DNA of 51,005 nt, the filler included, from Circinaria calcarea (taxonomy: Eukaryota): assembly GCA_051942165.1 (NCBI GenBank). It is 2 parts of 2 records of this genome, joined end to end, with 100 filler letters (N's around TTAATTAATTAA, not from the genome) between each part and the next. Parts side by side here need not be neighbours in the genome. Positions count along the whole stretch, not along the records: positions 1 to 25,458 come from JAVECS010000092.1; 1 more part is not named here. One strand, given 5' to 3'. The notes under the pieces were generated by a model. It was not told the origin of the DNA. It searched no databases and worked only from the letters and a program-made list of their open reading frames with translations. Below are positions 4,525-34,068 of the stretch, piece by piece (within the stretch, counting starts at the first letter, position 1; each line of letters begins with the position of its first letter). Both the position numbers and the translations under genes were made by a program.

Positions 4525-6203
4525 AGGATTTTGGGCTTAACTTGGTGGCTTTTTGTGTCTGGTTGGGTACATCGGGGAAGAGTGCTTTGGTCTCTGTCTA
4601 CTATCATGCAGCTAGCGGTGGCCGTATACATATTTTGGGACTCCCTACCTTCGTGTTCCGTACCATACGACTAATAGATGCTGGTCAACTCGGAGCTATC
4701 GAGATCCCGTTTCTTTCTTCTATCTGCGCTCAAAGCTTTTTCTTGTACTTCGGTTGCATTTAACCTACTCTCATCTCATACGGTTTGTTAACATACACGG
4801 GCTACCTGTCCAAGATGTCTCCACTATGTAAGGAGGCTTCTCTTTACGTAAGTACGGTGGGCAGAGCTTAGCAAAGACTAGCAAGCTCTGTAGATAGCAC
4901 TAAGGAAGCTGGTTAATCTTTTAATGTAACTTCGGCTCTGTGATCGCATTGATATTCTTTGCTTATGGTATATATAGCTCCCTCAACAAGTATTTAAATG
5001 TCCCTCTTCGAATCGTAGATGCGCTAAATGGTAAGATCCACAAGTGAATTTAGTGAGGGAATAGCTGTAGAGACGCTCAGAGGTCGAGGGTGACGAAAAA
5101 AGAGACCGATAGTATTTCCAATCTATGTGCAGCCGCTGCATGCTCTTCCTTTGATGCCGTATTTTGGTCCCTCCTTCTCCTTACATGCTCCTAATCTTCT
5201 TGTCAGTCAACTTTAAATCTCATACCTCCGTACAACGGACCACATATCTCATCCTCTTGCTTCCTAGGCGATCGTTAGCAATACTGAGAGTTTCCATGTG
5301 CGAAGTTTCCATACGTTTCAACAATATTTGGATCGCATTGCTCATGAGTTTGTTGATACTTTACGCACCAAGCCTTGACCAAGCAGCGTATATGGGTGCA
5401 CTTATATGTTACTTTCATGTAATCACACATTGTGGTTACCTCTTAGTGATTAGAATATACAAGCGGAGGGAGGGTAAGGTAGAAACTAAATAACAAATTT
5501 TCCATTCGGGTTTGGACTGGCTATCTTATAACGACGCGCAAGACCTGCGGGTTAGAAATTCATGTTCCTTTTCACTTTCATGTGGCGGATCATTGCTAGT
5601 GGTGCCAACCTGTAAAGTTGCATATTCCTTCGCATGCATAGAACTTGGTCTGTATGCAGACGGTAGCCGCACTCTGAACTTCTCTGATAGATCCACAAAC
5701 CAAGCTCTGTAATGCAGTGGATTGCTCCGCTGTAAGTGCGGTGTGGATCCTCATGGTCTTCTACTGTCTGCCGACAAAAAATCGGGTAAAGAGAAGAGAG
5801 GCATAGGAATCCGACTTTGGAAGAGGATGGAATGGTCTAGAGTGATTCCAAGCCGAGTTGCTCTGCTTCCGAGTTCTCAATTTCTCACCAATCATCTTCG
5901 TGCCCTTTCCTCGCTTTTGAAGTTCACCCCTTCGCCAATGAACACGCTTATCTCTGTCAAGGGCTGTTTTTCGACAGCGAGGATGCGGCCATGACTCATT
6001 GGCTGTTTGATAGATCTGAGCCCATCGATGTACAGCCCTCGCAAGCAAAACATAGTCACACTGCATATCAGGCATGCATTGCCGATAATTTTTCGACCAC
6101 AGACTCAGTTCTCCCCTCCTTCGCGACTCTTTGTGTCCATATATCCTGAGAGCATCAGTATTATCACCTCAACAAAGCCCCTCTTAGATCAGCCGTCGAT
6201 ACA

Positions 6204-7975
6204 ATGCCTCATACGCACCCGGCAGGAGCCACGGAGTGGCAGGCGGCCGTCAACAGAGGGATAGAGCTGCAGGCCAGCATTCTCGAAGCCTTTATCCCAG
6301 GCTATTCAATCATTTCGAGTTTCCTTCTTGAAGTTCTAGGCTTTGACATCACCATTGTTGTCTCCATATGTTTGCTCACATTCGCCCTTGTAACATCCAT
6401 CAAATATGTCTGGAACCATGTGTATAAATGGTTTAAGATCCATTTGATGTCCTATGTCAGTATTGAGTCCGACGATGACATCTATGAGCATGTCATGGAT
6501 TGGTTGAGTGAGCAGCGAGTGTCCCATGAATCGCAAACCTTAACGGCAAGGACAGAGCAGCATTCGTGGGATGCAGACGAGGCAGATGGTGACGGCACTA
6601 ACACGGACGGTGGGGGCTTTACTTGACTTTTCCAATTGGGCTAGCAAGGTGTGTACCCCTTGGCGAAAGCCGCTTCTTTGGGTACTTTGGGGCTAATAAG
6701 TAGAAATCTGAGGATAGGTTTCGCCCAAATACCAACCCCACTACGGCAAACATTGGTTTAGGCATAATGGCCGGTATTTTGAATTCGAGAGGGAGAATAA
6801 GCCAATGTTGAGGACGTCGAGTTGCGGTGGAAGTATACTGAGAGACGAGGAGACGATTAAAGTAACTTGCATTGGGCGTTCAACGCAACCAATCAAGGAT
6901 CTTATCAAGGAATGTCAGGACCACTATTTCGGCAAGAAGTCTTCCCGAACTGTTGTACGGAGACCAGCTGGGAAAGTCTCAAGGCCGAAATCCTTGGATC
7001 AAGGTAGCAACAAGGCCTTCTAGGCCTATAGACACTGTGGTTTTGGAGCGTGATCAGAAAGACAGCGTTATAGCTGATATGAATGAGTATCCACACCCCG
7101 CTAGCTCACGGTGTAAGTAATGTATCTCTGACCATTTATGGATGCAGGGCTAACCGTTCTTCAGGGTACGCCAATCGTGGTATACCATATCGCAGAGGTT
7201 ACCTCTTCCACGGCCCTCCTGGGACCGGTAAGACGTCACTCTCGTTTGCCATTGCTGGTGTCTTCGGCCTTGACATTCATTGCGTCTCTCTGCTCGAGGC
7301 AACCCTGACCGAAGAAGATCTCGGACTCCTTTTCAATAGTCTTCCGCGCCGCTGTGTTGTCTTACTCGAAGACATCGACAGCGCTGGCCTCATACGCCAC
7401 GAGGAGCCAACCGACGACATCCACACTGGTTCCAAGGGAAAAATAGAACCCACCACTCAAATCAGTGTCGAAATCGCCAAAGCATTCAGAATTGTTCAAG
7501 AAAAGAACGACAAGAACCTAAGCAGAAATCAAGGCATCTCGCTCTCTGGACTCCTCAACGCCATTGACGGTGTTGCTTCCCATGAAGGTAGAGTCCTTGT
7601 TATGACGACGCTCTCATTCGCCCCGGCAGAGTCGATATAAAAGTCGGGTTTACAATGTCCCGAAAGACTCAGATCTATGAACTCTTTATCCGTATGTACT
7701 CCGCTGATTCCACGAGAGCTAACCTCAAAAGCGCCACCGAGACATCCACCTCATCATTGACGCCGCGAGAGAAGATCTTCCCGGAGCTCGATTTGGAGAA
7801 GGTTGCTGTTCAATTTGCCTCGCTGCTGCCCGACGACAAATTCACACCTGCAGAGATCCAAGGATTCTTGCTTACGAGGAAGAAGGAGCCTAACAAGGCG
7901 TTAGAGGAAGTTGTTGGGTGGAGAGACAAATTGCTTAATTCGAAGGCTGCGAAGTCGAATTTGATACGCACTTAG
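6204..7975 (+). pseudogene. BCS1-like AAA+ ATPase, disrupted by three frameshifts
   Basis: N-terminal TM segment and BCS1_N-like region, RPIDTVVL, WYANRGIPYRRGYLFHGPPGTGKTS (Walker A), LLEDID (Walker B), ISLSGLLNAIDGV, ALIRPGRVD, FTPAEIQGFL. Introns at ~6649-6717 and ~7113-7164. Frame breaks at ~6615, ~6975 and ~7608. Confidence 0.85.
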
Positions 7976-12039: not shown

Positions 12040-12980
12040 CACCTCCGCCACCCGACCATCCAGGAGCGCTTCGCCACGCAGGACGCTGTCGAAATACGGC
12101 TAAAGGACTATGCCGTTAGCCAAGGCTTCCCGCTTGTCAAGCAGGGCGGGGCGGGGACCACAGGGGTCTATATTATAAAGTGCCGGCGGCACGGAGCTGA
12201 AACGAAGGACTGGAAGAGTTAGGCAACGATAAAAGGTCAAAGAAGAAAGACGGGACAATCCGCGACAGCTCTAGTCGCCAAATAGACTGTCCCTATTCAA
12301 TCAGGGTCAGTCAATGGAAAGGGGAGACGAAATAGCGAATCAGACTCACCAATACTACCCACAATCATCCTTTCAACCCGGATCCTTTCCTCGACCCATT
12401 CTTTCGCAGCCGCAGACCCCGTGCGGAAGAGGCTATCAGGCTCGCAACCACCCACAGAGCGGCGGGGGTGTCGCATTCCAATAGTGCGGCGATCATGCGT
12501 GAGTTTGGTCTCAGTAGTAATAAGAAGAATAAGCGGGGCAAGACAAAGATCGAACAGGCACGGGACTTACAAGCTCGATTGGAAGCCTTAGGCTTCCATG
12601 TCAGACCTCTGATCAAGACAGTCTGGAGCAGCGACGGCAAGGTCGTAATTGGAAGGGTTATGGAGCAGATCTTCTTCTGCTCCTCGATCCAGATCACTAT
12701 GGCAAGAAGGTTTGTTAGCGGGTTCATGATGCAGACAGACGCTACCTTTAATACGAATAGGCTTCGCCTATTGCTTTCCAGCTGTATTGATATGACCAAT
12801 ATAGGCAAGTCCTTCGCGTTCACCTACTGCTTCATATCTTCCGAGTCTACCGAGGCATTCACCCATATCTGGAAGTGTATATATGACTTGATATGGTACG
12901 ACAAGGAAGGGGACACGACATGTCCGCCTCCTCGAGTCGTAATCTCAGACTAGGCCGGCGGTTTGATTGCCAGCCTAGCG
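12040..12980 (+). mobile_element. decayed Mutator-like (MULE) transposase
   Basis: FAR1-type Zn region (YAVSQGF..KCRRHG..CPYSI..HNHP) followed by the MULE catalytic region QTDATFNTNRL..GKSF..CFISSESTEAF..PRVVISD*AGGL. Frameshift ~12216; in-frame TAG at 12333 and 12951; no TIRs identified. Confidence 0.8.
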
Positions 12981-13344: not shown

Positions 13345-13645
13345 GGCGGTGGATTCGGTCGTCCACCTTCGGACGCGTCCAAAAGGTGGATTCAACTACA
13401 AACAATATCGTGCGCTATCACGACTCGTCATCGAGAAAGCACCGGACGTTGACATTTGGAATGCCGTCTTTGATCTCATTACTACAATCTCTCTCCCCCA
13501 TCTCGCCCCTCATTTACATCGTCGTTTCAGTAGACACCTTGCTCCTTCGAAAATACCTCGGAACACAGGAAGCAGGCTGATGATGCTCTGAAGCAAGAAC
13601 TCCTCCCGAGCCTTCGAATCGATATTCCAGACTTCATCGACGCAA
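13345..13645 (+). pseudogene. fragment resembling the N-terminal region of FunK1-type fungal kinases
   Basis: YRALSRLVIEKAPDVDIWNAVFDLI then, in another frame, SEHRKQADDALKQELLPSLRIDIPDF; no kinase domain follows. Family assignment is from recall only. Confidence 0.45.
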
Positions 13646-14350
13646 GTTATGATAGCTCGGCTTGGGCAATCTCAAAGAGCGAGCAGGCAGAGCTGGATCA
13701 CAGGTTGGGGAGCGCAGGGTCTCGCATGGTCTTGTACATGGGATGCAGCAACTTGAAATAATAGACGTAACGTCGCCCACTGCGTAGCGGAAAGCCCCCT
13801 GTGCCGGAATGAATTTATTGTTCAGGCATCTCAACTCTCTCCCCCGCAGTTCTATCAAGTTCCAATTAATATGGTATTATTCTCTAGATATTTCTCTCTG
13901 AAAATAAGTATACAATCAAAAAAATACAGCGGTCTTCATCACGCTGTCGCTCGTTCCTTTTAGAGCGTTCAGAATTGCATTAGCTTTGCACCCCTACTGC
14001 ACTATAATTTATCTTTAAAATTTCAAATTTCGGAGCATCGAATTGATAGTTCTATGATGAAAGAAGATACCCCTAGCTTTAAAGACACTCAGCCCTTGAA
14101 AATATACACTCCCAATTTATCCGCGCAAATGGTTTCTGTAGCGTATCTTGACATTTGGGTTTAGCGCGCTTACGTGATGGCGTATTAGATAACCATCTAT
14201 CTGTATTGTATTCTACAATACACCTAGCTGACTCATAGTGTGGCGCTCTTCTAGAAGCATCTAGAGACGGTCATTTTTGGCAGCCGGGCATGCGCGCGTT
14301 CATTGGTGTCAGCTGTCTCTCATGCCTTTCCCATCACCACAATCGTTAAT

Positions 14351-16012
14351 ATGGACCGAGCCAGCCAGGTACTGGCGCAAGGCCTCCCTTCAGATGGACC
14401 TAGAACGTGGGCTGCCCTATCAGAAAGGGGCGATGTCCCTCTCACTACGCTCTATTATCGCGCACACGGACGACCCTCGAGAAAGGAAAAGGCCCAACGC
14501 CAGCAATACCTTACCGTAGAGGAAGAGAAAGCTCTTGTTACGTTTTTGTTACTAATGTCCGATCTTGGGCAACCTGTGCGAATAAAGTATATACCTTCGC
14601 TAGCCTTCAGCGTCACCCGCCAGCTGTCTACGACGATGGATGAGCCCCCAGGCAAGAACTGGGCTCGAGCCTTTGAGAAACGCCATCCAGAACTCAAAGC
14701 AAGGAGAGTTAGGTCGATAGACTGGAAACGTCACGAGAACAACACATACGTTAAGATCGTATACTGGTTCGAGGTAATTGGAAAAGTAATACAAAATCCG
14801 GCCATTTTACCAGAAAATGTCTACAATATGGACGAGACGGGAGTTATGCTAAGCATGCTCGGCTCCGTCAAAGTCCTTGTAGGTAAGGACGACCCACGAG
14901 ACTATACGGGCGCGGGTGTTAAGCGGACAATGGTAACTGCTATCGAGTGCATAAGTGCTGACGGTAGGTCGCTGCTCCCTCTTATAATCTGGCCAGCTTC
15001 AACCCATCGAAGCAACTGGACGACGTATAAAACCCCCGGATGGCATTACGCACATTCAGAAAACGGATACAACGACTCCAAAATTAGCTTGGAGTGGCTT
15101 AAGCGTGTGTTTGATCCCCAAACTAAAGAACGGGCTAATCAGAAACCACGGGTATTAATTTGCGACGGCTTCGGGACACACAAGACACTTGAGATGTTAG
15201 AGTATTGCTTTGAAAACAACATTATCCTGTGTCGTCTCCCTTCTCATACCTCTCACAAGCTCCAGCCCTGTGACGTCGGAGTCTTTGCTCCTTTAAAGAC
15301 AGCCTATCGCGACGAGGTTGAACGACTGTATCGAGGAGGTTTAGACACAGTTGGCAAGGAGCATTTCACCTCTCTGTACGAGCCTGCAAGGAAAAAGGCG
15401 TTGACCAAGAGGAATATTATAGCCGGGTGGGCTGCAAGTGGTTTGTTTCCGTTCAATCCAGAGAGAGTACTCCGACATACACCGAAGCCCCCCGCTGAAC
15501 TTACAGTTCCGAAAGCTAATGAGGTGGTGTCTTGTCCGCAAGACCAAGTACTGCAAATGCCTATAACCCCTGTAACGCCAGTGACAACAGAGGCTCTTAC
15601 GTCGTTGCACAATCTGATTAAACAGGAGCTTAATGAACCAAGTAAACACCGCATACAGAGGCACGTACAGAAGCTCGCAAGTGCCGCCAAAATATCATTT
15701 GCCAAACAAACCCTCCTTCAGGATCAAAATCGATTCTTGTCCAAGATCAACAACGAAGCCAAAGTTCGCCGATCGACCAGATCAGTGGTCCTGGGGAAGG
15801 CGAAGGTGATGAGCTATGAGGACCTTGAGGAGGCACGAGCGAAGCGTGCCGCAAAAGAGAAAGCTACGGCGGATAAGGGCAAGGGAAAACGCGGGCGTAA
15901 GCGCAAGAGTCCTGCGCCAGAGGAGGGTTCGTCAGTACCAACGGACAACGAAGTGCTGGAGCCAATGAAAGCCCCAGTGCCATGGAGGGCCCCAGTGGCG
16001 CGAATGTACTAG
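14351..16012 (+). mobile_element. pogo/Fot1-family DNA transposase (HTH + DDE_1), intact ORF
   Basis: VPLTTLYYR and PPGKNWARAFEKRHPEL HTH regions. Catalytic VYNMDETG, LICDGFGTH and HKLQPCDVG with 35 residues between the 2nd and 3rd Asp (DD35D). Basic KGKRGRKRK tail. Paired TIRs not found. Confidence 0.93.
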
Positions 16013-16104
16013 AGAAGTGTTGTTGAACTTGCTTCATGCTGCTTTGCCTTCAGAACCCAGCAGATCCACGTTTTAGCGCTGTGCTGAATGCAAAACTTCA
16101 CTCT

Positions 16105-16240
16105 CCTAGTCCAATTCCTACGCTTTCTGGCCCTTTGATCGCACGTCGGCGATCCTCCGCTTTCCAGGCTCCTGCTATTAATGAGGGCGGACGCCTACCG
16201 AGCAAGAATTGGTCGCAGGACTTCTACAAACGTCATCCCG
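16105..16240 (+). mobile_element. fragment of a second pogo-like transposase HTH region
   Basis: VQFLRFLA / IARRRSSAFQAPAINEGGRLPSKNWSQDFYKRHP parallels PPGKNWARAFEKRHP of the upstream transposase; frameshifted and truncated. Confidence 0.6.
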
Positions 16241-16360
16241 ATGGTCACAGAGACGTACGGCAAAAGTGCAACCGGACGGAGAAAGAGAAGGCAATTGTCA
16301 CTCAATTCTCGATGGTGACCGATATTTCCTGCGATTGCACTTATGTTGGCCTAGCTAAAC

Positions 16361-17261
16361 TCAAGGTTGAGTACCCCATTTCAAATTGCTAATGAAGCCC
16401 GTATTTTGACCTAGTTGAAAACCCGAATTGTTTGCACCTGAAAAGTTGACATGAATAGACCCAGAATCAAGTTGCGGCGTGGCCTCTGCTAGCCATTTTC
16501 TTGCTGTTGTACAGGCCTGCTGGCTTTGCTCAATAGCCTTCTTCTCGGTTTCTAGAGCCAGCCGGTCCTCCTCGAGTACTCTTTTCTGTCTCTCCAAAAC
16601 CTGTAGACTGCTATCCCCATCAGGTTCGGTGTGTTGATCATGAGATATAGCGGAGGCTTCAACGGCAAGCCTGTCGAGGCCTTCAGTAATCTCCTTAATA
16701 TGCACCTCAAGGTCCAGCTCCGTTTGGCTGATTTTATCGTTAAGCTTCCTTTTTATTTCATCGATAGCTTCGGCGGTCAAGTCAGAAGTAGTTCTAGAAC
16801 CAGGACATATTAATAGAGCTCGGAATATTTAGATACCAGACCTCTCACAGCGTGAAAAGGTCTAGTACGATTGCAATGGTAGCTTTGTACGATGCGAGCT
16901 GGCCCTTGTATCCGTCAATGGTCTTTCCTTTATACTGTATTTTGACCCAATCTCTCGCGCTTCTGCTGCCATCGGCTGAATGCGTGGTACACTGTTGAAT
17001 GAGCGACCTCAGATGGAAACAGACCATGCCACACTGATGGAGGGGGTATCGGATGTCTTCAAACTTCAAGGCATCGCTCGTGACTTTCTTGCGGATAGAG
17101 CTGAGAACCGGATCGAGGGCCAGCAATTCGCTCTTCAAGTCCCGGATTGTTTGAGGAGCTTTTTGGATGCTGTTCACAAGGTCGTAGACAGCCTTGCTTG
17201 TCTGAAACGCGAATGTTGCGATGCCCAGTAAACCGGCTGTGACTCCAATCGGTTCAGCCAT
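16361..17261 (-). CDS. HeLo-like (HELL) domain cell-death effector with C-terminal PP amyloid motif (HELLP-like), ~281 aa
   Basis: Two exons joined by a phase-2 intron 16848-16794 (GTGAGA..TAG). Hydrophobic N-terminal helix MAEPIGVTAGLLGIATFAFQTS, helical HeLo-like body (RDWVKIQY..YKATIAIVL), C-terminal FSGANNSGFQLGQNTGFISN. Confidence 0.85.
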
Positions 17262-17588
17262 GAGGGTTAAGGTTTAGTATTTTCAAGCACTTTTAGATAC
17301 TATGGAGAAATCGTAGGGGACTGTATATATGATGTGGCAAAGAAATGAGGAGGCTTCAACGTGGCAGCATTCCACAAGCGCTCAGCCTGACCGCTAATGC
17401 GACCGAATTTTGCCTAATTAGGAAATCAATTGTCTATGAAGTGTGAATTTCGAATAACAGCTTCAAGTCAGTGCTGGACTTACTGTTTTACGAACGGAGC
17501 GGGTGCCTAAATCCAGCGAACTGCGCAGTTAATGACATCTCTGTTACCCACAGTACCAGCGTAGCGATATCGGATTAGTCTAACGGCA
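17262..17588. promoter_or_regulatory. putative bidirectional promoter of the effector/NLR pair
   Basis: 327-bp spacer between head-to-head ATGs; TATATATA element at ~17324. Confidence 0.5.
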
Positions 17589-19353
17589 ATGACCGCCGCG
17601 AACTCTTCAGCGTCTTTCACTGGCGGCAACAATCAGGGCTTCCAGCTTGGCCACAACGCAGGCTTTGTTTACAACACCATTAACGTGGCGCAGGCACCTT
17701 TGTCCTTAACTGCCATACACAGCTACGACTTTGGCGTCCGACTTCGTGATGCCCCGCAGATTGATGAGGACCACTTCATTGGCCGCGATCACGAACTCGA
17801 GCAGCTACAGACATTGCTCACTCCATGTCCTGGAAGGCAGAATATAGTGGCGCTATATGGAATGGGAGGGGTAGGTAAAACGCAGCTGGGCATCCACATG
17901 ATCAGGCGATCGGGAAGCAGATACTCATTGGTATATTGGCTTAATGCGAAGGATGAAAATACACTGAAGGCTGGGCTCGCGCTACTAGCGATGGAGATAA
18001 CAGAGATATCTGCGTCCTCCATCCTCACGGACGCGCATCAGGAAGAGCGACTGATGCAACAAGCACGACAATGGCTGTCACAGCAGGGCAACGACAAGTG
18101 GTCGATCGTATACGATAACTATGACAATCCCCGTCTGTCCGGAATAGATAGCGCAACGGGGTATGATATCCGCGCCTACTTCCCATCCCGAGCACAGGGT
18201 TCGATCCTGATCACGACGCGCTCGCCGCGACTAGCTTTTGCAAAGCAACTTCGGGTAACAAAACTGCAGGATATCGGTCAGAGCCTAGCTATTCTTGCAA
18301 CGCGGTCAGGCCGCAAGGTTGACGGAGGTGAGAGAAAGACTGCAGATAAGGAAAAGCGATTACGATGGCTAACCTTTCTTCTATCCCTAAGATAAGTCAG
18401 CTGAACGACTCGCACAACGCCTTGATGGGCTGCCATTGGCACTAGCGACGGCCGGCGCATACCTCAGTCAGTCGGCGGACAGCTTTGACGAGTATTCCGA
18501 ACTATACAATCACAGCTGGAATGATCTCAGCCAGTATAGTAGCGGGCCGGTAGACTACGAGGAGCGAACACTATACTCAACATGGAACGTGTCATTTCAA
18601 CAGGTCCAGGACCAAGACCCTGCGGCGGCCGAGCTTTTAAAGCTAATGGCATATCTGGACAATCAAGATCTCTGGTACGGGCTTTTTCATAAGGACGTTA
18701 GCAACGCACCGGTATGGTGGACTGATGTGCTAATGAGCCGGGCGAGGTTTAATCAGGCGATCTCAATACTGCATAATTTCTCTCTCCTCGAGGTGAGTAC
18801 GGGACAGTACAGCCTACATACATGTGAGCACGACTGGACGCTGGAGTATTTGAATAACGAATTTGACCAAGAAAGATGTCGGATCGCTATCCACTGTATA
18901 GCGGCGAACGTAAGTGGGGAGTCAGAAGCGGAGTACTGGATGAGAAGCCGGCGAGTGTTACCACATGCGCGCCGATTTGAGCATAATCGAATAAAAGCTG
19001 CAATCGACTGGAGTATAATTGCGCCCGGAGAACTACATATGCTTGCAGATCTGTACCAGCAGAACGATATGAGTTCTGAGGCGGAGAAGATGTATCGGCG
19101 GGCGCTGGATGGATACGAGAAAGCGTGGGGCCCGGATCATACATCCACCCTCAATACCGTCAACAACTTGGGCCTTCTTTACGCTGATCAAGGCAAGCAT
19201 AGCGAGGCGGAGAAGATGTATCGGCGGGCACTGGATGGATACGAGAAAGCGTGGGGCCCGGATCATCCCTCCACACTCCGTACTATCGACAACCTACGTT
19301 TGCTTAATGCCGATCGAAGTGGGCATATAAAAGTGAAAGAGATACATTCGTAG
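17589..19353 (+). CDS. fungal NLR: N-terminal PP amyloid motif + NB-ARC + TPR (PNT1-like), ~566 aa
   Basis: N-terminal FTGGNNQGFQLGHNAGFVYN, FIGRDHEL, Walker A GMGGVGKTQL, Walker B IVYDNYD, ILITTR. A phase-1 intron 18328-18391 restores RLDGLPLAL. Two 42-aa TPR units EAEKMYRRALDGYEKAWGPDH. Confidence 0.9.
19075..19326 (+). repeat. 126-bp TPR-coding tandem repeat x2
   Basis: 19078-19140 and 19204-19266 are identical at 62 of 63 positions; the second halves of the units are more diverged. Confidence 0.9.
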
Positions 19354-19899
19354 GCGCTCGATAGAAGCGATGGAGCACACGACACCAACGAGTATTCACA
19401 ATCGCCACCATCAACAGGGAAAGGCATCTTGAAGAGACTCAAAGCAGGATGCGGAGGCGGAAAAGGGGCTCTACAGGACAGTGAATAGATCTCAGAAATA
19501 ATATAATACAATCCTAGGCATTATGAAATGCACCATGCAGATCGAATTTTGACTCAATTGACACGAGTAGTCGCATGCCATCCGACGTACAATCTGAAAT
19601 CTATCACTTATAAGAGACGCTATATATATCTTGCCTCTATAACCAAAACTTGGTGTATGCTTCCGTTGTCCCTCAGTATTATACATGGAGAACGTGGAGT
19701 CTTGAACACCGAAGTACCTTAACCAAATTCCACCACGTAGGGTGTTTCACGACGCCGGGATGGGTTTAGGGGATCGTAATAGAGTAGGTGCCACTTCGAG
19801 ACGCGTACCGGTTATTTGCTGATTGCTCGGAGTTGGATCTTCATGTTCCGAGGGTCCGCACAGCTATAGAATCAACAGCCACAATAGCTTACCGGAGAG

Positions 19900-20460
19900 G
19901 GTAAATAAATTACCAAGATTAATATGTGAGCCGTACCATACGGGGTGGTTCTGTACTAGCCGGAGTTGGTAACTGCTTTTATTAGAAGTACCGACTAGGG
20001 TGGGGATCTTGCATGAGTTTGCGCGACACAGTAGATATAAGGCTGATGATAACTTCCTAGTATTGTAGTAAGTCTCGGGGGCTCATATAAGACAGTATTA
20101 TAGAGTAATAAGAGCTTAAAAGTAGTGCTATAGAGAAGGGATAATATTAGGCCATAGAAGGAAGCTCTCTGCGAATCAGGCGCAAGGGCGACTATACGAA
20201 CGTAATTTTCAGGTAGGAGGAGTCTCGAATATTTACAAGTAGCCACAGCACACGACTGACATATAATTGTAGTAGATCCCGACGTATGCGCAGGGTCATA
20301 GTCGCTTAAAGTTGAAGTACCCCTCACATTTTCCGGTACGGTGGGCTTTCCGCGACCCAGGGATGGACGTTATACTTTTCCTTCCTTGGCAGCCAATCGA
20401 TTAGTGTTTCGTAACCTACCCTACTTTAGGTCCTAAGTACTTTACGTCTAAGATTTACCG
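19900..20460. other. TpA-rich degenerate relic, probably a RIP-mutated repeat
   Basis: Visibly dense TA/TAG/TAA content (e.g. tagagtaataagagcttaaaagtagtgctatag) compared with the flanks; no intact protein-like ORF. Confidence 0.45.
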
Positions 20461-20690
20461 CTGTAATTGCTCCCTCAACGGAACTTAAAGCTAGAATGTG
20501 TGGTGTTATCAGAAGTCGGGTGCTTTTTCACTCTCCTTGGGTACACGTATGAAAGGAGGGAGCAGAGACTGATTTTTGGAGAGATAGATTCAAGTGTTAA
20601 CCAGGAAATGAGCCATGCCTTGAAAATGCATAGTAAGTATACTGATAAAACAACCAAACGACTAGCAAACTTGTTTTTCTTCAATGCCGC

Positions 20691-21293
20691 TTAGTACCAA
20701 GGCGTTGCCTCATAGTTATTCTCCTCCTCCTCTGTCTCTTTCTCATCGTTGTCGTCGTCTTCATCTTCCTCCTCTTCATCCTCCGCCTCCTCTCCACCCT
20801 CTTCCTCCTTCTCCTCTTTCTCCGCTTCTTTACCATCCAGCTTGTAGACCTGAGCATGCAGTATCAGCATAATGGCTTTGCGATAAACTGACGGCCTCCG
20901 GTTCCCCGCTACGTCAAGCGCTACTTCTGACCAGTCGACTTGGTTCAGTATTGACTCTGATGCTCTTATGAGTTCCGCGGACGAAATATTCAGATATGAA
21001 GGCTGAGGAGAGGAGAGTGGATTGTCGCCACAGAGACGTTTAGGAGATGGACCATGATTACCACGCTCTGGTAGTAGTATTGGGCGTTTCATCATTCCCA
21101 TCTCGTCTGCGCCAGTGTTTGCCTCAAGTGAAGAAAGCGCCCGCTTATTCCTCTTATCAAGTATAGGATAAGGAGTGAGCGGGAGATCTGTCGTATGGTG
21201 ATCATTTCGATGATGGATGAAATGTGGTTGCGGGAGTCGTAATGGAGTACAGTAGGAAACTTTCCCTTTCCATTTAGTGCTGGGCTGCTCCAT
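20691..21293 (-). CDS. hypothetical protein with small helical domain and acidic C-terminal tract
   Basis: ATG-started 200-aa ORF; helical segment ELIRASESILNQVDWSEVALDVAGNRRPSVYRKAI followed by an E/D run. Confidence 0.55.
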   Translation of the reverse strand: MEQPSTKWKGKVSYCTPLRLPQPHFIHHRNDHHTTDLPLTPYPILDKRNKRALSSLEANTGADEMGMMKRPILLPERGNHGPSPKRLCGDNPLSSPQPSYLNISSAELIRASESILNQVDWSEVALDVAGNRRPSVYRKAIMLILHAQVYKLDGKEAEKEEKEEEGGEEAEDEEEEDEDDDNDEKETEEEENNYEATPWY

Positions 21294-21419
21294 CTTTACT
21301 GTCTATCAGTCTCTGCCTCTTGTGTAGAAGGGATGTGCTTTTTCAGCTGTTTATGACTGTTGTGAAAGCGACTGAATATAACTTAAGGTTCTCGCTGCGT
21401 CTTTATGCTCTTGCTACCC

Positions 21420-21495
21420 GTCCTATCCAAATATAGCTCCCACCCAAATATAGCTCCCCATTCTATCCAAATGTGGCTCCCTATATGGCTCCCCT
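21420..21495. repeat. short degenerate tandem repeat (ccaaatatagctccc-like x3-4)
   Basis: ccaaatatagctccc, ccaaatatagctcccc, ccaaatgtggctccc and tatatggctcccc in succession. Confidence 0.7.
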
Positions 21496-22953
21496 TTCCC
21501 AACGCGGGGAGTGCCTGCGATCCTTCTTTCCCGCCTCTGACCACCTGTTATTGTACCTCACAAACCTATTTCTGGCTCCCCTCATTCCGCTTCTTGCTTC
21601 CCACCGCTCCAATTGCTGCTGACCTCAATCCCTGTATGCTGTAGATCATTGTTGCCTTTAGCTATATCCAGGCCCTCACAGGTGCGGATGATTGCCAGTC
21701 ATCCGCCGGAGCAATAGTAGTAGAGCGTGACTCATGAAACATAAGCGGAGGTTGATAAAGGATTGTAGTGGATGTGAATGCCTTCGATGAGAGCTGAATT
21801 AAAGCGACGACCTGATGCACAGCTGCCAAGGATGTTGGTACGGCCAGGCTAAGCGAGAGAGAAGCTCCAGGGTTGTATTTTTGCCATCTACTAAGTAAGA
21901 GGTTTCATTGTGAAGAGACACGAGTGCATAGTGCACTCTAGATTTATGACCTTCGACGAATACAGTACTAGAACTACACTAATTCTAACTCTGATACATC
22001 ATACAAGAATTTTGCGTAATCGTCACTTTTTCCTTAAGTGATTCCTGTAAGGGCGCCTGATCGGTATACATCGGAGTAGAAACTCGACCCATATAAGCGG
22101 TTTCAGCTTGAAGACCCTGAGAGAAAGTCGGCACCTCGAGATTGGCTTCTGAATCTAGAAAGGGAAACAAAGTCGGGCCCTCATACCAGTAATATAGGTC
22201 CCGCTGCCGGTACTGTTGAGAAAGGCGTCCCAGTCATAATCTTCCTCAAGAATAGTGTTCATTACGGAGAAGAAGTGGAATGTTATGTGCCTGCGTTCGC
22301 GCACGGCTGCTCCCTTTAAATCTCGCTCGAAGCATAATGCGTTCCTGGTGGAAAAGCGGTCGTTTCTGGAGCGCTTGATGTGACCGGTCATATTGCTCGA
22401 GTCGGAAGGATTCGCCTTAATGTTGGATTACTATATAAAAGCCCCAAAGCTTAATCATGACCGTGGTGCGTGGTCTGACGTGCGTACGCCACCAAGACAT
22501 ACCAGGATTTGCCTATCCAATAACCTTCATGCTTTCATGAACATTTGCCCGTGCTGACGGATCTAAAACCAACATCCCTAGCCTGGTTTTTGAAAGCCTA
22601 TCTTCAGTGTCCACCGATGAGGGTTATAGTTGGGGACTGTCCGTGCCCCCTCCAAGCGTTGCCCCTCCAAGCCCACCGCTCATATCTATGTCTCCGTAGA
22701 GTAACTGCCGGAGGAAGGTTAATATGCTTCAAGGATGCACCATGATGGCCAACAAAATCATAGGTTGGTTAGAAAAAAATACTAGTGACTCGAAAACGAA
22801 CAGTCCAACATACATGCTATTTCAAAGTGCGAATGGAGTATAAGTACAGCTCTCTCAAATAGTCATCCTCAATCGCCGAGCACCCTCACCGAAGAGTTAC
22901 TTCAAGGCAATCACTAAGTATTCACATAGATCACATACTTATTTCTGACGATA

Positions 22954-25936: not shown

Positions 25937-27016
25937 CTATCCAGGTATTGCACTCTTTATGACTGCTTGCGGTTTGGAGCCTTGCTGTAGTCCTCCCCGC
26001 AAAGTGGTCCAACTCACTCCATCCACCGTCCTCCCACTCAAGTTTTCGCTAAATTCAATAGCTTCCAGTAATCGCCCCATGGCTATCCTGCGCATCATGA
26101 TTGTATCTTTCGCGCCAGCTAGCTTATTGCCCTCTCTTTTGACCAGGTATTCCTCTAGCCATGCCTCCTCCTTTTCATCGAGAGGCAGACCAAGTAGCTC
26201 CACAGCTCTGCTTGCCCGAATGTCTCCTTCGGAATTGGCATGAACGAAGCAAACTAGTAGCTCAAACAAATGCTGGTGAATCAACTCGCCATGGCTACGA
26301 GAAAAAAAGAAAGCTTCTGTGATGCTTGCGCTGCACATAGTATTGAACAAAGTGTCAAGCACTCTGGTAGATGAGATGATGGGCGAGACTGTGTGATAGT
26401 AGGATAAGGGTAGAGAAGGGTCATCTTTGGGAGCATGTCGGCAAAGGGTGTAGAGGATGTCTTCCGGAAATGTAGGGACAAGGCATGGATCGGTAAGATA
26501 GTCCAATGCTCTCTAAATAGGCCATTTGTAAGTAGTCCAAACGAATATGTAGTAAGTCAACACGGCTCACCTCGAGCACCAGTCGATCTAAGTACCAGAT
26601 GCCATCAATGAATACCTGATACTTGTTCGGTATATAACAGTTCTTGGCATAATCCACCGAACTTTGAGTTTGACTTGGTAGATCTTTTAGTATGTAGTAG
26701 ACTAAAGACTGCTTGTGATGGTCAGGGGAGGTGCTCGTGACGATTCGCTGGTAAAGGTTTCGAAGATCCTGATTTGAACGTGGAGGATATAGCTTTGATG
26801 CTATAAGAAGTAGGCATCAGTCTAAATGTAGTAGTAGGGGACGAAAAGCTGGTTTTAAACACCTTGATCCACCCCAACAGCCTTGAGCAATCGGTCGAAG
26901 AAGAGCTCATTTTCTAGTGCGCGCCGATGGTGGTGAATTTGCTCAATTACTTGATGATTGTAAGCCAGGTCTAGTTTTGTGCCAAAGATACTGTCAAAGT
27001 CATCGCTTTCCTCCAT
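25937..27016 (-). CDS. ELYS-like nuclear pore assembly protein
   Basis: Three exons: LFFDRLL, YPPRSNQDLRNLYQRI..HHKQSLVYYILKD, FIDGIWYLDRL, ALDYLTDPCLVPTFPEDIL, LPLSYYHTVSP, ELLGLPLDEKEEAWLEEYL. Introns at 26862-26801 and ~26570-26516. Confidence 0.8.
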
Positions 27017-27233
27017 ACTGCACAACGATCTGCGTTGCGCCGGTGTAGTACTTTGTAGACGGCTGTAGCATCGTGGTGGAAAACCAGCTCCAGGCACGAA
27101 GAGATTGAAGATCACATAAGGATTGGCAGCGGGAACTAGTTGTCGATCGCGTGCAGGGCCGAAGTTCAATGTAAACAATCACGTCTCCCCGCTTGCGATA
27201 CGCGACATTGATTCGCAAAGTCTGCAATCCACA
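27017..27233. promoter_or_regulatory. short bidirectional promoter between ELYS-like gene and SMC4
   Basis: 217-bp head-to-head spacer containing CGCG elements (cgcgt ~27148, acgcg ~27200). Confidence 0.45.
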
Positions 27234-30200
27234 ATGGCTTCTATGTCACCAACGCGTCCGTCACGGAGGGCTGCTGCCAGGAAGAAAATCGTTGTCGATG
27301 AATCAGATGGTGAAGACACGGTTATGCAGGATGACGCCCCGGACGACGATGCAGAGGAGTTTACACCAGCACCGCAGCGCAGCCCCCGGCGGACAAACAG
27401 GAGAACGACGACAGGCGTACCTCCGACACCACATACGGCCCCACGGGCTAGAAGAGCAAAGACTGGGGAAAGCATTGAGCCGTCGCAGATATTCAATCCG
27501 GAAGAAACGGATCTTCATGTCCCAGTGTCGCCTACAAAACGGGCATCTCCAAAAAAGCGGAAAAGTACCGCGCCAAGTAAGAAGAGAGGTACCTCAGTCT
27601 CCATGGACCCTCCACCGCTACCTACGCCGCATCCTTCAGCGACGCCAGAACCTTCTCAACTACATGGTACTCCTCTAGGAGATATTACTAGCACAACCAT
27701 CAACGGGCAAGCAGGTCCCGTACCGGAGATCAAGAAGGAGTTTGTCAAGATCAAGCCCATGGACACGATGCTGGAAATGCCTAGGGATATAGTCGTTCGC
27801 ACAAGAGCTTTAGGGATACCAAAGACTCAGGAGCCAGCAGGCTCCAAGTCACGCACAGTGATTCAGTATCTGGTGCTCACAAATTTCAAAAGTTACGCAG
27901 GGAGACAGAAAGTGGGACCGTTTCATACCTCGTTTTCCTCCGTAGTGGGGCCTAATGGATCCGGCAAATCAAACGTCATTGATTCATTGCTGTTTGTGTT
28001 TGGCTTTCGTGCGAGTAAGATGCGGCAAGGCAAAATCTCGGCATTGATACACAATTCTGCAGGATTTCAAGACCTAGGCTACTGCGAAGTCGAGGTTCAT
28101 TTTCAAGAGGTTGTTGACTTGGTGAGTAAATGTTGGTAGAACGCAAATCTTCCTTATCCCTACTTACATTACAGCAGCCTGATGGGAAACATGAAATTGT
28201 ACCCGACTCGACTCTAATAATATCCCGGAAAGCTTTCAAGAACAATGCAAGCAAGTATTACATCAATGCTCATGAATCAAACTTCACAGCTGTTACGACA
28301 CTTCTTCGAGACAGAGGGGTAGACCTAGACCATAAGCGCTTCTTAATTCTGCAAGGTGAAGTAGAGTCGATAGCGCAAATGAAGCCAAAGGCCGCAAATG
28401 AACACGATGATGGACTTCTCGAGTACCTGGAAGATATCATAGGGACCTCGAAATACAAGACACCAATTGAGGAGTCAGCCACAGAGATAGAGACGCTGAA
28501 TGAAGTCTGCGTTGAGAAGAATGCACGGGTACAACATGTGGAGAAGGAGAAGAATGGCTTGGAGGATAAGAAGAACAAGGCCGTAGCTTATATTTCGAAT
28601 GAGAATGAGCTCACCAAGAAGCAATCAGCGTTGTATCAGATCTATGTCGACGAATGTAACGATAATATCATTGTGACAGGCGAAGCCATTGATCATCTTC
28701 AAGGCCAGCTAGATGCAGAACTAGCGAAACATCATGGGAATGAGGATGGCATCAAAGATTTAGAAAAGCAGTACAGGCGGGGATTGAAGGATTATGACAG
28801 TCTTGAGAAGTCAACACAAGCCGTTATCAAAGAAATGGCAAAATTTGACAAGGAAAATGTCAAATTCGAGGAGAAGAAGAAATTCCTCACAAACAAACAG
28901 GAGAAGTTGAGAAAGGCTTTACGATCCAGCCAGCTGGCTGGCTCGGAGGCCAATGGTCTAATACAAAAGCATTCGGATGACATCGAGCGCAACAATGTGG
29001 AGATTATCTCCCTGAACAAGAACAGGAAGTTTGAAGAGCAAGAGCTGATTGCCATCAGAGATAGTCTGAAAGGAAAGACGCAAGCCTTCTCCGATCAAAT
29101 CGCCTTGAAGCAGAAGTCATTAGAGCCATGGAACGAGAAAATCAACGAGAAACAGTCTGCCATAGCCGTTGCGCAAAGCGAACTTGATATATTGCGAGAA
29201 AGAGCGTCTGCTGGTGAAGTTGCACTCGAAGAGACCAAGACCAAAATTGAAGTCATTGAGCAAGGTAATGTAGCTAAAATGACCGAGCTCGAAAGAATCA
29301 AGGCCCAAAGAAGCCAAATTAAGAAGGAGTCAGACAAGCTACGACAAGAATTGGCCAAGCACGCCCAGAAAGAGCCTGAGCTACGAGCGCAGCTATCTGG
29401 GGCTCGCCAAAGAGCCGACGAAGCCAAAGCTAGCTTGTCAAACAGCCAAAGCCAAGGGAACGTGCTGAACGGGCTCATGAGGTTGAAGGAGTCAGGCCGC
29501 ATCGAGGGCTTTCACGGTCGACTTGGTAATCTCGGAACCATTGATCAGAAGTATGATGTAGCTATATCGACCGCATGCCCTTCACTGGAGAATCTAGTTG
29601 TTGACACCGTCGAAGTTGGTCAGCAATGCATTGATTATCTTCGCAAAAACAATCTCGGACGAGCAAACATCATATTACTTGATCGATTAGCACGACGAGA
29701 CATGACTACTTTGGACACTCCAGAAGGCGTACCAAGGCTTTTTGATCTCGTGAAGGCCAAGGATGAGGGATTTCGACCCGCGTTCTTCAGTGTCCTGCAG
29801 AACACTCTGGTTGCCAAGGATCTGGAGCAAGCCAATCGAATAGCATACGGTGCGAGAAGATGGAGAGTCGTGACCCTCGATGGCCAGCTGATTGATGTAT
29901 CGGGGACCATGAGTGGTGGTGGTACTAGAGTCGCTAGAGGTGGCATGTCTTCTAAGTTGGTAGCAGACACTACGAAAGAACAGGTATCAAAGTTAGAGAT
30001 CGACCGCGACGGACTGGAGCAGCAATTTGAGGCGTTCCAGCAGAGGCAACGAAAATTGGAGGCAGACCTTAAGCAGCTTGAGGGTCAGATTCCACAGCTC
30101 GAGACGCAGATACAGAAGACAGGTCTGGAGGTAGACAGTTCTAACCGGAATCTTGCAGATGCGCAACGTCGGATCACTGAGCTGACAGCAGCCCAGCAGC

Positions 30201-31791
30201 CGGCAGAGTCAGATGATGCTCGGATAAGGCAATTGGATAAACTAATCTCGCAGCTAGAGAGAGAAGCGGCCAAACTTCATGCACAAACAGCCGGGCTGGA
30301 GCAAGAAATCAAGGAACTACAAGATAAGATCATGGAAGTTGGCGGTGTTCGGCTTCGGGGACAAAAAGCCAAGGTTGACGGTTTGAAGGAGCAGATAGAT
30401 ACTCTAAACGAAGAGATATCGAATGCGGAAGTCGCTAAGTCAAAGGCTGAAAAGGATAAAGTCAAGCACGAGAAAGCTTATGCCCAGTCTGAACAGGAAA
30501 TAGCTGCTGCGGCGGAGGATCTGGAGCAGTTGGATAAAGAGGCGAAGAACCAAGCTTCGGATGCTTTTGGGTCGAAACGGAAAGCAGAGGAAGCGCGAGA
30601 GGTACCTTATGTTAATCCAGCATACTCATTTCCTGTGCAGCTAACTATGGACTAGGCGCTAGACACGAAGAAAGAAGAGCTCGCGGTACTTAAGCAGGAC
30701 ATTGATCAGAAAACAACTGAACTCAACGAGATTCGTGCTGTGGAGATTGAGATGAAAAATAAGCTGGAAGAAAACCACAAAGTTCTTACTGAAAACCAGA
30801 AACGTCTTCGCTACTGGTCTGAGAAGCTCAGCAAGCTAAGCCTCCAAAGCGTCAGGTGTGTGTTTAATATCCATCAATACAAGTGAGGTCTGACCCCTGG
30901 ATTTAGCGACCTTGGCGAAGATCAAGAAGTTCCGCAGCTCCCTGAATTCACCAAAGACGAGCTCCTCGATATGAATAAAGAAACGCTCAAAGCTGAAATC
31001 GCCATCCTCGAAGAAAAAAACCAAAATAACCCCGTCGACCTTGCGGTCCTGGCTGAGTATCGCCGCCGAGTTGAAGAGTACACCTCCCGTAGTACCGACC
31101 TTCAATCTGCAGTCACATCACGCGATACAGCCAAGAAACGCTGCGATGACCTGCGTAAACTCCGCCTAGAGGGTTTTATGGAAGGTTTCAGTATGATTTC
31201 TCTACGACTGAAGGAGATGTACCAGATGATCACTATGGGTGGTAACGCTGAGCTTGAGCTTGTTGATTCCCTGGATCCGTTTTCGGAGGGTATCCTGTTC
31301 AGTGTGATGCCACCAAAGAAATCGTGGAAGAATATCTCAAATCTCAGTGGTGGGGAGAAGACGTTAAGTAGTCTCGCGTTGGTATTTGCATTGCATCATT
31401 ATAAGCCAACACCCTTGTATGTGATGGATGAGATTGACGCCGCTTTGGACTTTAGGAATGTGAGTTACCGGATGAGAGCGCACGGTTAAGAGGAAGAAAG
31501 ACGCTGACAATGTTCATAGGTGTCGATTGTGGCGAGTTATATCAAGGAGAGGACGAAGAACGCACAGTTCATTGTTATCTCATTAAGAAATAATATGGTG
31601 TGTTGTGGCGAACTTGACTGATTGTTTGGGGAGCTAATTGGTGTAGTTTGAGCTCGCTTCCCGTTTGGTTGGAGTGTACAAGGTCAATAACATGGTGTGT
31701 CATTGGATTCTTATGCTTCTCCTAAGGAGTTACTGACATTGAGCAGACAAAGAGTGTCACCATCGAGAACAAGGATTACATTACTCGGTAG
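27234..31791 (+). CDS. SMC4: condensin subunit SMC4 (Cut3)
   Basis: NFKSYAG, Walker A VGPNGSGKSNVIDSLLFVFG, RFLILQGEVESIAQMKPK, hinge GFHGRLGNLG, signature LSGGEKTLSSLAL, Walker B YVMDEIDAALDFRN, C-terminal TKSVTIENKDYITR*; several canonical introns. Confidence 0.97.
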
Positions 31792-32011: not shown

Positions 32012-34068
32012 ATGTCCCTTCTATTCACATGTCGCCGTTTTAGACCGCCAACGATAGGAACTCACTGGGATTGCTCGTCATATCTTCATAAGACTTATGC
32101 GAAGTCTACCAGAAGGATATCACCACTCTTGGCACCGACCCGTCAGTTCCACACAGACACTCTTGGCCTCGACAGTATCCCTTTTCGCAAGCAGCTGAAG
32201 GATGAGGCTAAGCAACGACGTGCCACCGGGGTGGATGTATCAAGAAAACGGAAGGGAGGTTCAAATGGCCGCCTGGACAAGTGGGAGTTGACGGTGGGAA
32301 TCGAGGTCCATGCCCAATTGAATACCGAGCGGAAGCTATTCTCAAGTCAGTGAGGAAGAGACTGAAGCAGATGAATAGACGCTTAACATCCCAAGGAGCG
32401 GCTACTTCGAGTAGCGACTACGCAAACTCCCATGTTGCCTTGTTTGATCTTGCAATGCCGGGCAGCCAGCCAGTGAGTCTCAACGTTCCTTAAGTGGTAG
32501 AGGATATGGGAGATGCTGATGTTTATGTAGGAGTTCCAAAGAGCTACTCTTTTACCGGCAATACGAGCTGCCATCGCCCTCAACTGCGACATTCAGCGAA
32601 TGAGCAAGTTTGACAGGAAGCACTACTTCTACCAAGACCAACCTGCAGGATACCAAATCACGCAGTACTACGGTAGATCAAGCCTTTATCGTCCCTGGAA
32701 ACACTCTGACAGGGATAGAGCCTTTTGCCAAAGATGGATATATTACTCTCTTTGACTACGATGGAATTGCTCTAGAAGACGGCAAATCCATTAAGATCGG
32801 GATAAAGCAGATTCAAATGGAACAGGACACTGCAAAGTCTACGCATGCACCTCATGACTCCGTACTCCTAGACTTGAACCGAGTTGGACAACCCCTCATC
32901 GAGATTATCACACTACCCCGTATCCATCATCCCAAAACCGCAGCCGCATGTATAAGGAAGATTCAAAACATACTACAAGCCGTCAATGCTGTGACGACAG
33001 GCATGGAGATGGGCGGACTAAGAGCCGACGTGAATGTTTCCATAAGACAACTGAGCGCTGACCCTGGGCCACATGCATACTATGGTGTAACTGGGCTGGG
33101 GCAGCGTACGGAAATAAAGAATCTTAGCAGCTTCAAGGCTGTTGAGGATGCCATCGTTGCGGAAAGAGACCGCCAAATTAACGTACTTGAATCTGGTGGA
33201 CAGATTGTGGGCGAGACAAGAGGATGGTCTCTGGGAAGCACTGACACTCGAAAGTTACGTGGGAAAGAAGGTGAGGTGGACTACAGATACATGCCGGACC
33301 CTGACATTGCACCGGTCATAGTAGGCAAGGTTAGTCCGTCAACCTTGTGCATGGAAACCAAGCTGAGCCTTGTAAAGGATCTAGTAGATCACCTGGCGAG
33401 TTCTTTACCGGTCTTACCAGACCAGCAGATTCGTCGGCTTGTCGGAGATAACCAGTTGTCTATCAAAGATGCCAAGACTTTGGTTGCTCTTGACGACGGA
33501 GAACGATTGGATTACTTTGATGCGGTCCTCTCGATTCTATCCCATACTGCAGGTGACCACAAGGAACAACGTAGCCAGTATGGTAAAACGGCTGCGAATT
33601 GGTATTTCAATTTCCTTAAGATAATACGTTGACTACTGGTTGACTATATTCGCTAGGATACTGCACGAACTCGGTGGTCTCTTGAGCGCATCCGAAACCA
33701 GCTTTTCCCATGCCCAAGTCCCTGCACATGCGCTGGCTTCAATAATACAGAACCTACTCAAGGAGCGAATCACCGGCAGGACAGCAAAACGTTTGCTATC
33801 GATGGCCTTCGATGGTGATACAAGGGACATTGATCTCATCATAAGACAAGAGAGCCTAGAACTCCACACCCTGGCAGATGAGGAGTATGAAAAGATGGCA
33901 CGGGGCCTAGTATCGGAGAACGAGGAAATGGCCGAGAAGATTCGATCAAGTGGGCAGATGGGTAAACTGCAATGGTTCGTCGGGCAGATGATGCGACAAG
34001 GTGAGGGCAGGGTGGAGGCGGGTAAGGCGGAAGCTATGTTGAAGCGGATACTTGAACTGGATGATTAG
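32012..34068 (+). CDS. PET112: mitochondrial glutamyl-tRNA(Gln) amidotransferase subunit B
   Basis: Arg-rich presequence, [83 protein letters not shown]; multi-exon. Confidence 0.95.

Follow-up and report, generated by a model that had tools for sequence, protein, structure and literature searches.

A probable two-gene amyloid signalling pair of the PNT1/HELLP type in the lichen-forming fungus Circinaria calcarea

The window analysed here, a stretch of 51,005 nt from the genome of Circinaria calcarea (assembly GCA_051942165.1) made up of two records joined by 100 N (positions 1-25,458 from JAVECS010000092.1), carries two divergent genes whose start codons lie 327 bp apart (Table 1). The minus-strand gene encodes an effector with an N-terminal HeLo-like (HELL) helical domain and a C-terminal PP amyloid signalling motif. 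The plus-strand gene encodes a NOD-like receptor (NLR) in which a similar PP motif precedes an NB-ARC module and tetratricopeptide repeat (TPR) units. Based on domain profiles, the shared motif and the conservation of the pair, we consider it probable that the two genes together make up an amyloid signalosome of the PNT1/HELLP class, here in a lecanoromycete, lichen-forming fungus.

Both gene models were read from the sequence, and each contains one canonical intron, located after nt 413 of the 281-codon effector gene and after nt 739 of the NLR gene. Without splicing, the effector frame runs into a TGA at 16845-16847 and the NLR frame into a TAA at 18393-18395, so that both introns are needed. 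The models thus bear out the head-to-head layout with one intron per gene put forward in a preliminary description of this DNA, whose interval 16361-19353 extends between the two stop codons. The spacer between the two start codons presumably serves as a shared bidirectional promoter. A public 563-residue protein labelled Circinaria calcarea and annotated as 'hypothetical protein' (P0005) is 100% identical to the window NLR; its splice acceptor lies 9 nt downstream of the modelled one (region 18328-18400), and it consequently lacks the residues D-K-S. Since the NLR orthologues of Psora and Stereocaulon both retain D-[SN]-S at this place, we favour the modelled acceptor. For the effector, a search with its exon (E <= 0.001) returned no identical protein of at least 241 aa, so public annotation probably either misses this gene or divides it.

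Splicing of the effector intron, which the preliminary description had assumed, receives support from public sequencing runs. Of 24 runs listed, 20 contain part of the stretch and none contains half of its words; no RNA run is listed among those containing it. Contigs of four public runs were aligned to 13500-21500 at a threshold of 85% likeness. A 989-nt contig of run X4 covers 16260-16793 and 16849-17270 with 34 differences and omits exactly the 55 intron bases, and run X20, guessed to be RNA, shows a joint from 16790 to 16849 with three differing letters between. The two runs belong to different studies, and the best reading of their intron-less effector contigs is that they derive from spliced transcripts of closely related fungi. 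Contig cover in the four runs is zero at 20442-20708 and 21243-21500, with a depth of 0.25 at 20976-21242 that comes from run X7 only; because of the 85% threshold, these gaps prove nothing. Run X7 also has loose ends at 16037 and 19762, which may mark the limits of a shared block or just divergence below 85%.

The two proteins are linked by their PP motifs, which lie at the termini where they had first been described and agree at 13 of 20 residues around an NxGFQLGxN core. When the full-length proteins are aligned locally, this stretch comes out on top (score 78), a score reached by none of 2000 shuffles of the NLR (maximum 76), and shuffles of the 40-residue termini likewise never reached the motif score (0/5000, maximum 54). 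A six-frame scan of the window gives two matches to the strict pattern N.G[FILVM]Q[FILVM]G.N, at the two PP sites; the looser G-phi-Q-phi-G core has one further occurrence, at 32312-32326 amid stop codons, and this pattern scan revealed no third PP-bearing frame in the 51 kb. Both motifs match the PP core given as NxGxQxGxN in PMC9815663. In the Pfam scan, PF17046 matches the effector tail encoded by exon 2 with 29.1 bits (E 8.8e-7; cut-off 23.2). The same cut-off is passed in 5/5 effector copies scanned and in the NLR N-termini of the Psora orthologue (26.0 bits) and of a metagenome copy, L002 (24.0 bits); for the Stereocaulon NLR (P0007), PF17046 is not among the best 25 of 30 families. Between lineages, the motifs of five pairs are retained at 16-21 of 21 positions on the effector side and at 15-20 of 21 on the NLR side, with a within-pair identity of 10-15 of 21. 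A representative search gave 774 relatives at E <= 0.001, and among the best 150 the G-phi-Q-phi-G core is present in nine, six times in C-terminal PP tails, all in exon-sized fragments, and three times at unrelated positions.

The effector domain belongs to PF17111, a family now named PigL_N and formerly Helo_like_N. Its profile matches effector exon 1 with 129.6 bits (E 1.4e-37; cut-off 27.2) and covers residues 2-133, and in the orthologues it reaches 92-156 bits over residues 2-194. The nearest ESM Atlas cluster has PF17111 together with PF17046. Hydropathy along the effector peaks in the 19-residue window at its very N-terminus, which contains a GxxxG motif. Of the 36 residues of the tail, 19 are G, N, Q or S. 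An AlphaFold2 model made for the full-length Psora orthologue (P0001, 86% identical to the window effector) from 63 aligned relatives has helices between residues 4 and 242 (predicted local distance difference test score 87.3; predicted template modelling score 0.81), followed from about residue 245 by a low-confidence or disordered tail carrying the PP motif. A search of PDB sequences with the effector profile returned nothing relevant at E <= 1.

In the NLR, the motifs GMGGVGKT (P-loop), IVYDNYD, ILITTRS and GLPLAL, named as in the NB-ARC literature, are all intact. PF00931 scores 30.8 bits on NLR exon 1; on P0005 its match spans residues 68-285 and reaches 39.8 bits (cut-off 23.5). TPR_10 matches two stretches (68.6 bits), which correspond to a tandem repeat with a period of 126, 1.9 copies and 82% matches; the two units differ at 25/126 bases, and no further decayed units were found 3' of 19488. 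The Psora orthologue also has two units in an open frame. In Stereocaulon P0007, residues 481-942 comprise eleven near-identical 42-residue units whose variation is concentrated at positions 26, 33, 36 and 37, a pattern that would be expected of a hypervariable ligand-binding surface. Contig depth in the public runs rises 10- to 100-fold across the TPR units (19107-19373), reaching 4990 in X4, which reflects the many TPR-bearing paralogues in these samples.

The pair recurs outside Circinaria. The effector-exon search returned four proteins of at least 241 aa, all with PF17111 and PF17046, from Psora crenata, Stereocaulon virgatum, one ENA record and Teloschistes peruensis. Effector identity amounts to 82-87.5% with the near-full-length copies P0001, P0002, L001 and L002, 85% with a shorter model (P0004, 246 columns) and 68% with P0003. 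After P0005, the NLR-exon search found Psora (89%) and Stereocaulon (87%), the remainder being at most 57% identical and mostly equipped with other N-terminal domains (SesA); the N-terminal halves of the NLR orthologues are 86-89% identical to that of the window. In Psora and Stereocaulon, the effector and NLR homologues have adjacent locus tags, and the metagenome contigs L001 and L002 carry the head-to-head pair with both motifs present; the same pair and layout was found in four other sources. Compared with L001 and L002, window identity is 89.5-92% in the exons, 82-84% in the introns, 76-80% in the spacer (5-8 gap columns) and 80% in the 3' flank, and the coding sequence is free of indels. 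At a synonymous divergence (dS) of 0.17-0.25, the ratio of nonsynonymous to synonymous divergence (dN/dS) is 0.22 and 0.33 for the effector (against L001 and L002) and 0.43 for NLR exon 1 (against L002). Both contigs retain the splice signals and branch-point-like sequences. Judged from these sequence comparisons, the two genes are conserved together, and purifying selection acts on them.

By homology with the Podospora PNT1/HELLP system, we propose the following hypothetical sequence of events, in which (i) ligand binding by the TPR array would let the NB-ARC module oligomerise; (ii) the oligomerised NLR would gather its N-terminal PP motifs into an amyloid nucleus; (iii) this nucleus would template the PP tail of the effector; (iv) refolding of the tail would free the hydrophobic N-terminal helix of the HeLo-like domain; and (v) the freed helix would go to the plasma membrane and kill the cell. 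Amyloid formation, templating and toxicity of the window pair are thus predicted from its membership in this class. For the proposed membrane step and killing, the hydrophobic N-terminal stretch with its GxxxG and the confidently modelled helical domain give indirect support. That the class as such is known, as the preliminary description held, is borne out by the Pfam models that exist for both parts.

Several findings weigh against this assignment. The PP profile stays below its cut-off on the NLR side, with 21.1 bits (E 2.9e-4) against 23.2 on exon 1 and 19.5 bits in the full-length protein, so that of the profile matches anticipated in the preliminary description, PF17111, NB-ARC and the effector PF17046 lie above their cut-offs, TPR_10 is present, and the NLR motif stays below. 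Among the contig rows listed there is no joint across the NLR intron, and splicing is supported on the effector side; the kind of run X4 is unrecorded, and the contig that skips the intron there might conceivably stem from a DNA copy without the intron. For the P0001 model, Foldseek gave 0 matches to the PDB at E <= 0.001. In a wide VIA-align search, residues ~9-138 matched MLKL 4btf_A at rank 10 (Z 10.4, root-mean-square deviation 2.4, 100 aligned residues), MLKL 6ux8_A (Z 9.8) and the CC-R domain of plant NRG1.1, 7l7v_A (Z 10.0), but unrelated helical proteins reach Z 11.5, and Z values under ~13 are common for helical bundles. The modelled match to MLKL is consistent with the published link between HeLo-like domains and MLKL and is no evidence by itself. 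As for the sensor, the window NLR has two TPR units versus eleven in its Stereocaulon orthologue, fewer than in any of the pnt1 alleles described for wild Podospora isolates in passages of PMC7885112 (4-10 TPRs). In addition, where the Psora orthologue (P0006) has R567, the window NLR has its TAG (19351), 44 codons before the Psora stop. These last two observations make the earlier claim of a complete module insecure, and we regard the window NLR with its two TPR units as a putative sensor only.

The same two observations could mean that the module is decaying, with an intact effector and an NLR that has lost ligand sensing through the collapse to two units and the nonsense codon. In that case the two proteins would have ceased to operate as sensor and effector, and any triggering of the effector would have to come from a different protein with a PP motif or from a prion arising spontaneously. 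Besides the low repeat number and the 44 homologous codons left beyond the TAG, decay would account for the divergence of the post-stop frame (24/41 identical to P0006 residues 568-608, E 1e-13), the lower identity of NLR exon 2 (78% versus 89% for exon 1) and dinucleotide indices resembling those of repeat-induced point mutation (RIP) just downstream, at 19500-20500. However, NLR exon 1 has a dN/dS of 0.43 with the P-loop, ILITTRS and GLPLAL intact, the 44 lost residues are not TPR, Psora retains the two-unit architecture with an open frame, and natural nwd2 alleles range from 2 to 11 repeats, so that two-repeat alleles do exist in a related sensor (PMC7885112). The second stop at 19486-19488 coincides with the end of the Psora protein. 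From this alignment, the TAG seems to stem from a nonsense mutation of fairly recent date that hit a tail outside the TPR array, and the collapse to two repeats is the older of the two events. Since Psora keeps two units with an open frame, the short form is old and not simply abandoned. Because the two-repeat collapse is conserved in this way, we retain the signalosome reading and regard a loss of sensing as unlikely, though it deserves serious consideration.

A very improbable alternative is that the motif belongs to another amyloid family, such as sigma or HET-s/HRAM, or is a true RHIM. The Pfam name of PF17046 is Ses_B, and the Introduction of the preprint 10.1101/2020.01.06.895854 ties PF17046 to the sigma motif; yet elsewhere in that preprint, in its Methods and in a figure legend, it is called 'aka PP-motif', and both window motifs match the NxGxQxGxN core. 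Neither RHIM nor PF11558 (HET-s_218-289) nor PF17106 (NACHT_sigma) was found at E <= 0.1 in the Pfam scan of the window exons, and PF11558 and PF17106 did not appear in the orthologues at E <= 0.01 (for P0007, among the best 25 of 30 families). That the two low-complexity ends, rich in G, N and Q, resemble each other by chance and have no part in signalling, as the 19 G/N/Q/S residues in the 36-residue effector tail might suggest, was rejected as practically negligible in view of the composition-preserving shuffles, the conservation of both motifs in 5/5 pairs and the matches of the curated PF17046 profile to both ends.

Around the pair, the window combines mobile-element sequences with ordinary chromosomal genes, namely those for ELYS, SMC4, GatB and the BCS1-like protein (Table 1). 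A pogo/Tc5-type transposase gene with an open frame lies tail to tail with the effector gene, and no terminal inverted repeats were found for it; in the metagenome contig L002, a diverged fragment of the same transposase family (2815-3240, minus strand) is likewise convergent with the effector copy. No Starship captain Pfam family was found in the long frames scanned, several of which had no match at all. RIP-like dinucleotide indices (TpA/ApT 1.0-1.5; (CpA+TpG)/(ApC+GpT) 0.70-0.97) occur at 14500-15500, within the transposase, as well as in the region 3' of the NLR mentioned above, and are absent over the pair.

Table 1. Features of the locus and its surroundings, numbered along the whole window
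Feature	Position	Strand	Details
Effector gene	16361..17261	-	ATG at 17261, 281-aa product, stop 16361-16363; model read from sequence
Effector exon 1	17261..16849	-	
Effector intron	16848..16794	-	55 nt, GT..AG, GTGAGA...TTCTAG
Effector exon 2	16793..16361	-	includes stop
HeLo-like (HELL) helical domain	16625..17261	-	~residues 1-194, PF17111
Effector PP motif	16385..16444	-	residues 255-274, core NSGFQLGQN at 16403-16429
ATG-to-ATG spacer of the divergent genes	17262..17588		327 bp
NLR gene	17589..19353	+	ATG at 17589, 566-aa product; model read from sequence
NLR exon 1	17589..18327	+	
NLR intron	18328..18391	+	64 nt, GTGAGA..GCTAAC..AAG
NLR exon 2	18392..19353	+	includes stop
NLR PP motif	17616..17675	+	residues 10-29, core NQGFQLGHN (residues 15-23) at 17631-17657
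NB-ARC module	17790..18516	+	split by intron, PF00931
P-loop GMGGVGKT	17859-17882	+	
IVYDNYD	18105-18125	+	
ILITTRS	18204-18224	+	
GLPLAL	18427-18444	+	
Two TPR units	19078..19329	+	126 nt (42 aa) each, whole intact array
Decayed third unit and tail	19330..19488	+	in-frame TAG 19351-19353, second stop 19486-19488
Pogo/Tc5-type transposase	14255-16012	+	open 585-codon frame; DDE_1 3.8e-33, HTH_Tnp_Tc5; tail to tail with effector
Mutator-like element (MULE) transposase fragment	12336-12950		
BCS1-like AAA protein	6150-7640		
ELYS-like nucleoporin	25940-26816		
SMC4 (condensin)	27120-31486		
Mitochondrial GatB	32604-34068		

The similarity of the pair across lichen orders is unusual. Its proteins are 82-89% identical among records labelled as two subclasses and three orders: Circinaria (Ostropomycetidae), Psora and Stereocaulon (Lecanorales) and Teloschistes (Teloschistales). 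In our judgement, a dS of ~0.2 together with an alignable spacer is unexpected across subclasses. In the tree, the seven PP effectors are united in a single clade (100/100) whose internal branches are very short, and L001 and L002 group with Teloschistes (94/92). Constraining the Lecanoromycetidae copies together costs 12.8 log-likelihood units (approximately unbiased test, p-AU 0.013), while constraining the Lecanorales together is not rejected (p-AU 0.069); as most internal branches lack support, little can be concluded from the topology by itself. Considering the 82-89% identity, the dS of 0.17-0.25 and the aligned spacer against L001 and L002, the p-AU of 0.013 and the pogo-type transposase beside the effector both here and in L002, we tentatively raise the rather doubtful possibility that horizontal transfer has carried the pair, as a compact cassette of ~3.7-4.4 kb, between lichen-forming fungi belonging to different orders and subclasses, possibly aided by neighbouring transposons. 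Strong or unusual constraint, or mislabelled or mixed bins, are a possible explanation in place of transfer. A search with an SMC4 exon (28130-30652), covering candidates of 1473-4205 aa only, gave Sarcosagium (69%) and Penicillium (67%) as best matches and no orthologue from Psora, Stereocaulon, Teloschistes or Circinaria. For a Starship of Xanthoria, the preprint 10.1101/2025.11.25.690456 proposes an NLR transfer in which lichen fungi take part. If horizontal spread were true, lichen fungi would have in common a 'lichen-wide' module for amyloid-driven death whose sensor is reduced to two repeats, and which might serve the recognition of partners or intruders in the thallus.

Taken alone, the pair is an expected member of a described class; the host group is new. 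In the main texts and passages searched, no paper tied PP or amyloid signalling to lichen-forming fungi. The words 'Lichen' and 'Lecanoromycetes' are absent from the main text of PMC9815663, and the Xanthoria preprint (10.1101/2025.11.25.690456) reports 23 NLRs, with amyloid motifs unmentioned in the passages concerned. Lecanoromycete NLRs have thus been counted before, without a link to amyloid signalling in that literature. What is understood of NLR signalling through amyloid templating comes from a small number of Sordariomycetes, and the same wiring is now indicated for lichen-forming Lecanoromycetes. The pair also offers a naturally occurring PP motif whose core has phenylalanine (GFQLG) and, with two and eleven TPR units on otherwise near-identical proteins, a natural sensor series that bears on the repeat number required for sensing. 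Should the cross-order similarity be confirmed, the pair becomes a candidate for horizontal movement of a complete cell-death module.

Among known systems, one parallel is provided by bacterial pairs with the BASS3 motif, in which adjacent genes encode an NLR and a membrane-targeting Bell effector with a common RHIM/PP-like motif (10.1101/2020.01.06.895854). These pairs are prokaryotic and carry a Bell instead of a HeLo-like domain; the likeness is one of description. The mammalian RHIM of RIPK1 and RIPK3 has the G-phi-Q-phi-G core in common with the window motifs (PMC7885112), so the RHIM likeness put forward in the preliminary description applies to the core and does not extend to a match with the Pfam family at E <= 0.1. 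The window motif sits on the executioner itself, whereas in the MLKL system RHIM is located on the upstream kinases (PMC5485727); the MLKL four-helix bundle superposes on the modelled N-terminal domain within the helical-bundle noise noted above. The NWD2/HET-S and FNT1/HELLF systems follow the same principle, as the N-terminal motif of the NLR templates the C-terminal prion domain of a neighbouring HeLo or HeLo-like pore-former (PMC7885112). However, they use HRAM motifs, 21-residue beta-solenoid repeats present twice per effector, for which the pair has no PF11558 match at E <= 0.1, and NWD2 combines NACHT with WD repeats, in contrast to the NB-ARC and TPR of the window NLR.

Another known system is HELLP/SBP/PNT1 of Chaetomium globosum, with the same motif family, effector domain and NLR type as the window pair (PMC7885112, PMC5485727). 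The preliminary description had equated the window layout with this system. The assignment to the PNT1/HELLP class stands, but the Chaetomium cluster contains three genes, hellp-sbp-pnt1, with the PP-tagged lipase SBP as a second effector (PMC7885112, PMC5485727), and no third PP-bearing frame exists in the window's 51 kb. The layout instead matches the two-gene hellp-pnt1 cluster of Podospora anserina, in which an NB-ARC/TPR NLR carries the PP motif within its first ~30 residues (PMC7885112). This comparison is by description and gene structure. Podospora hellp encodes 271 aa and has one 47-bp intron at nt 429-475, comparable to the 281 aa and single 55-bp intron of the window effector (PMC7885112). 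The NLRs differ: PNT1 of the reference strain has 971 aa, whereas the window NLR has 566 aa, two units and an early stop, and the pnt1 intron lies at nt 95-148, well before the intron position in the window NLR (PMC7885112). The hosts differ as well, Podospora being a sordariomycete and Circinaria a lecanoromycete. In Podospora, HELLP(214-271) and PNT1(1-31) form prions that co-localise, and these prions drive full-length HELLP to the membrane with cell death (PMC7885112).

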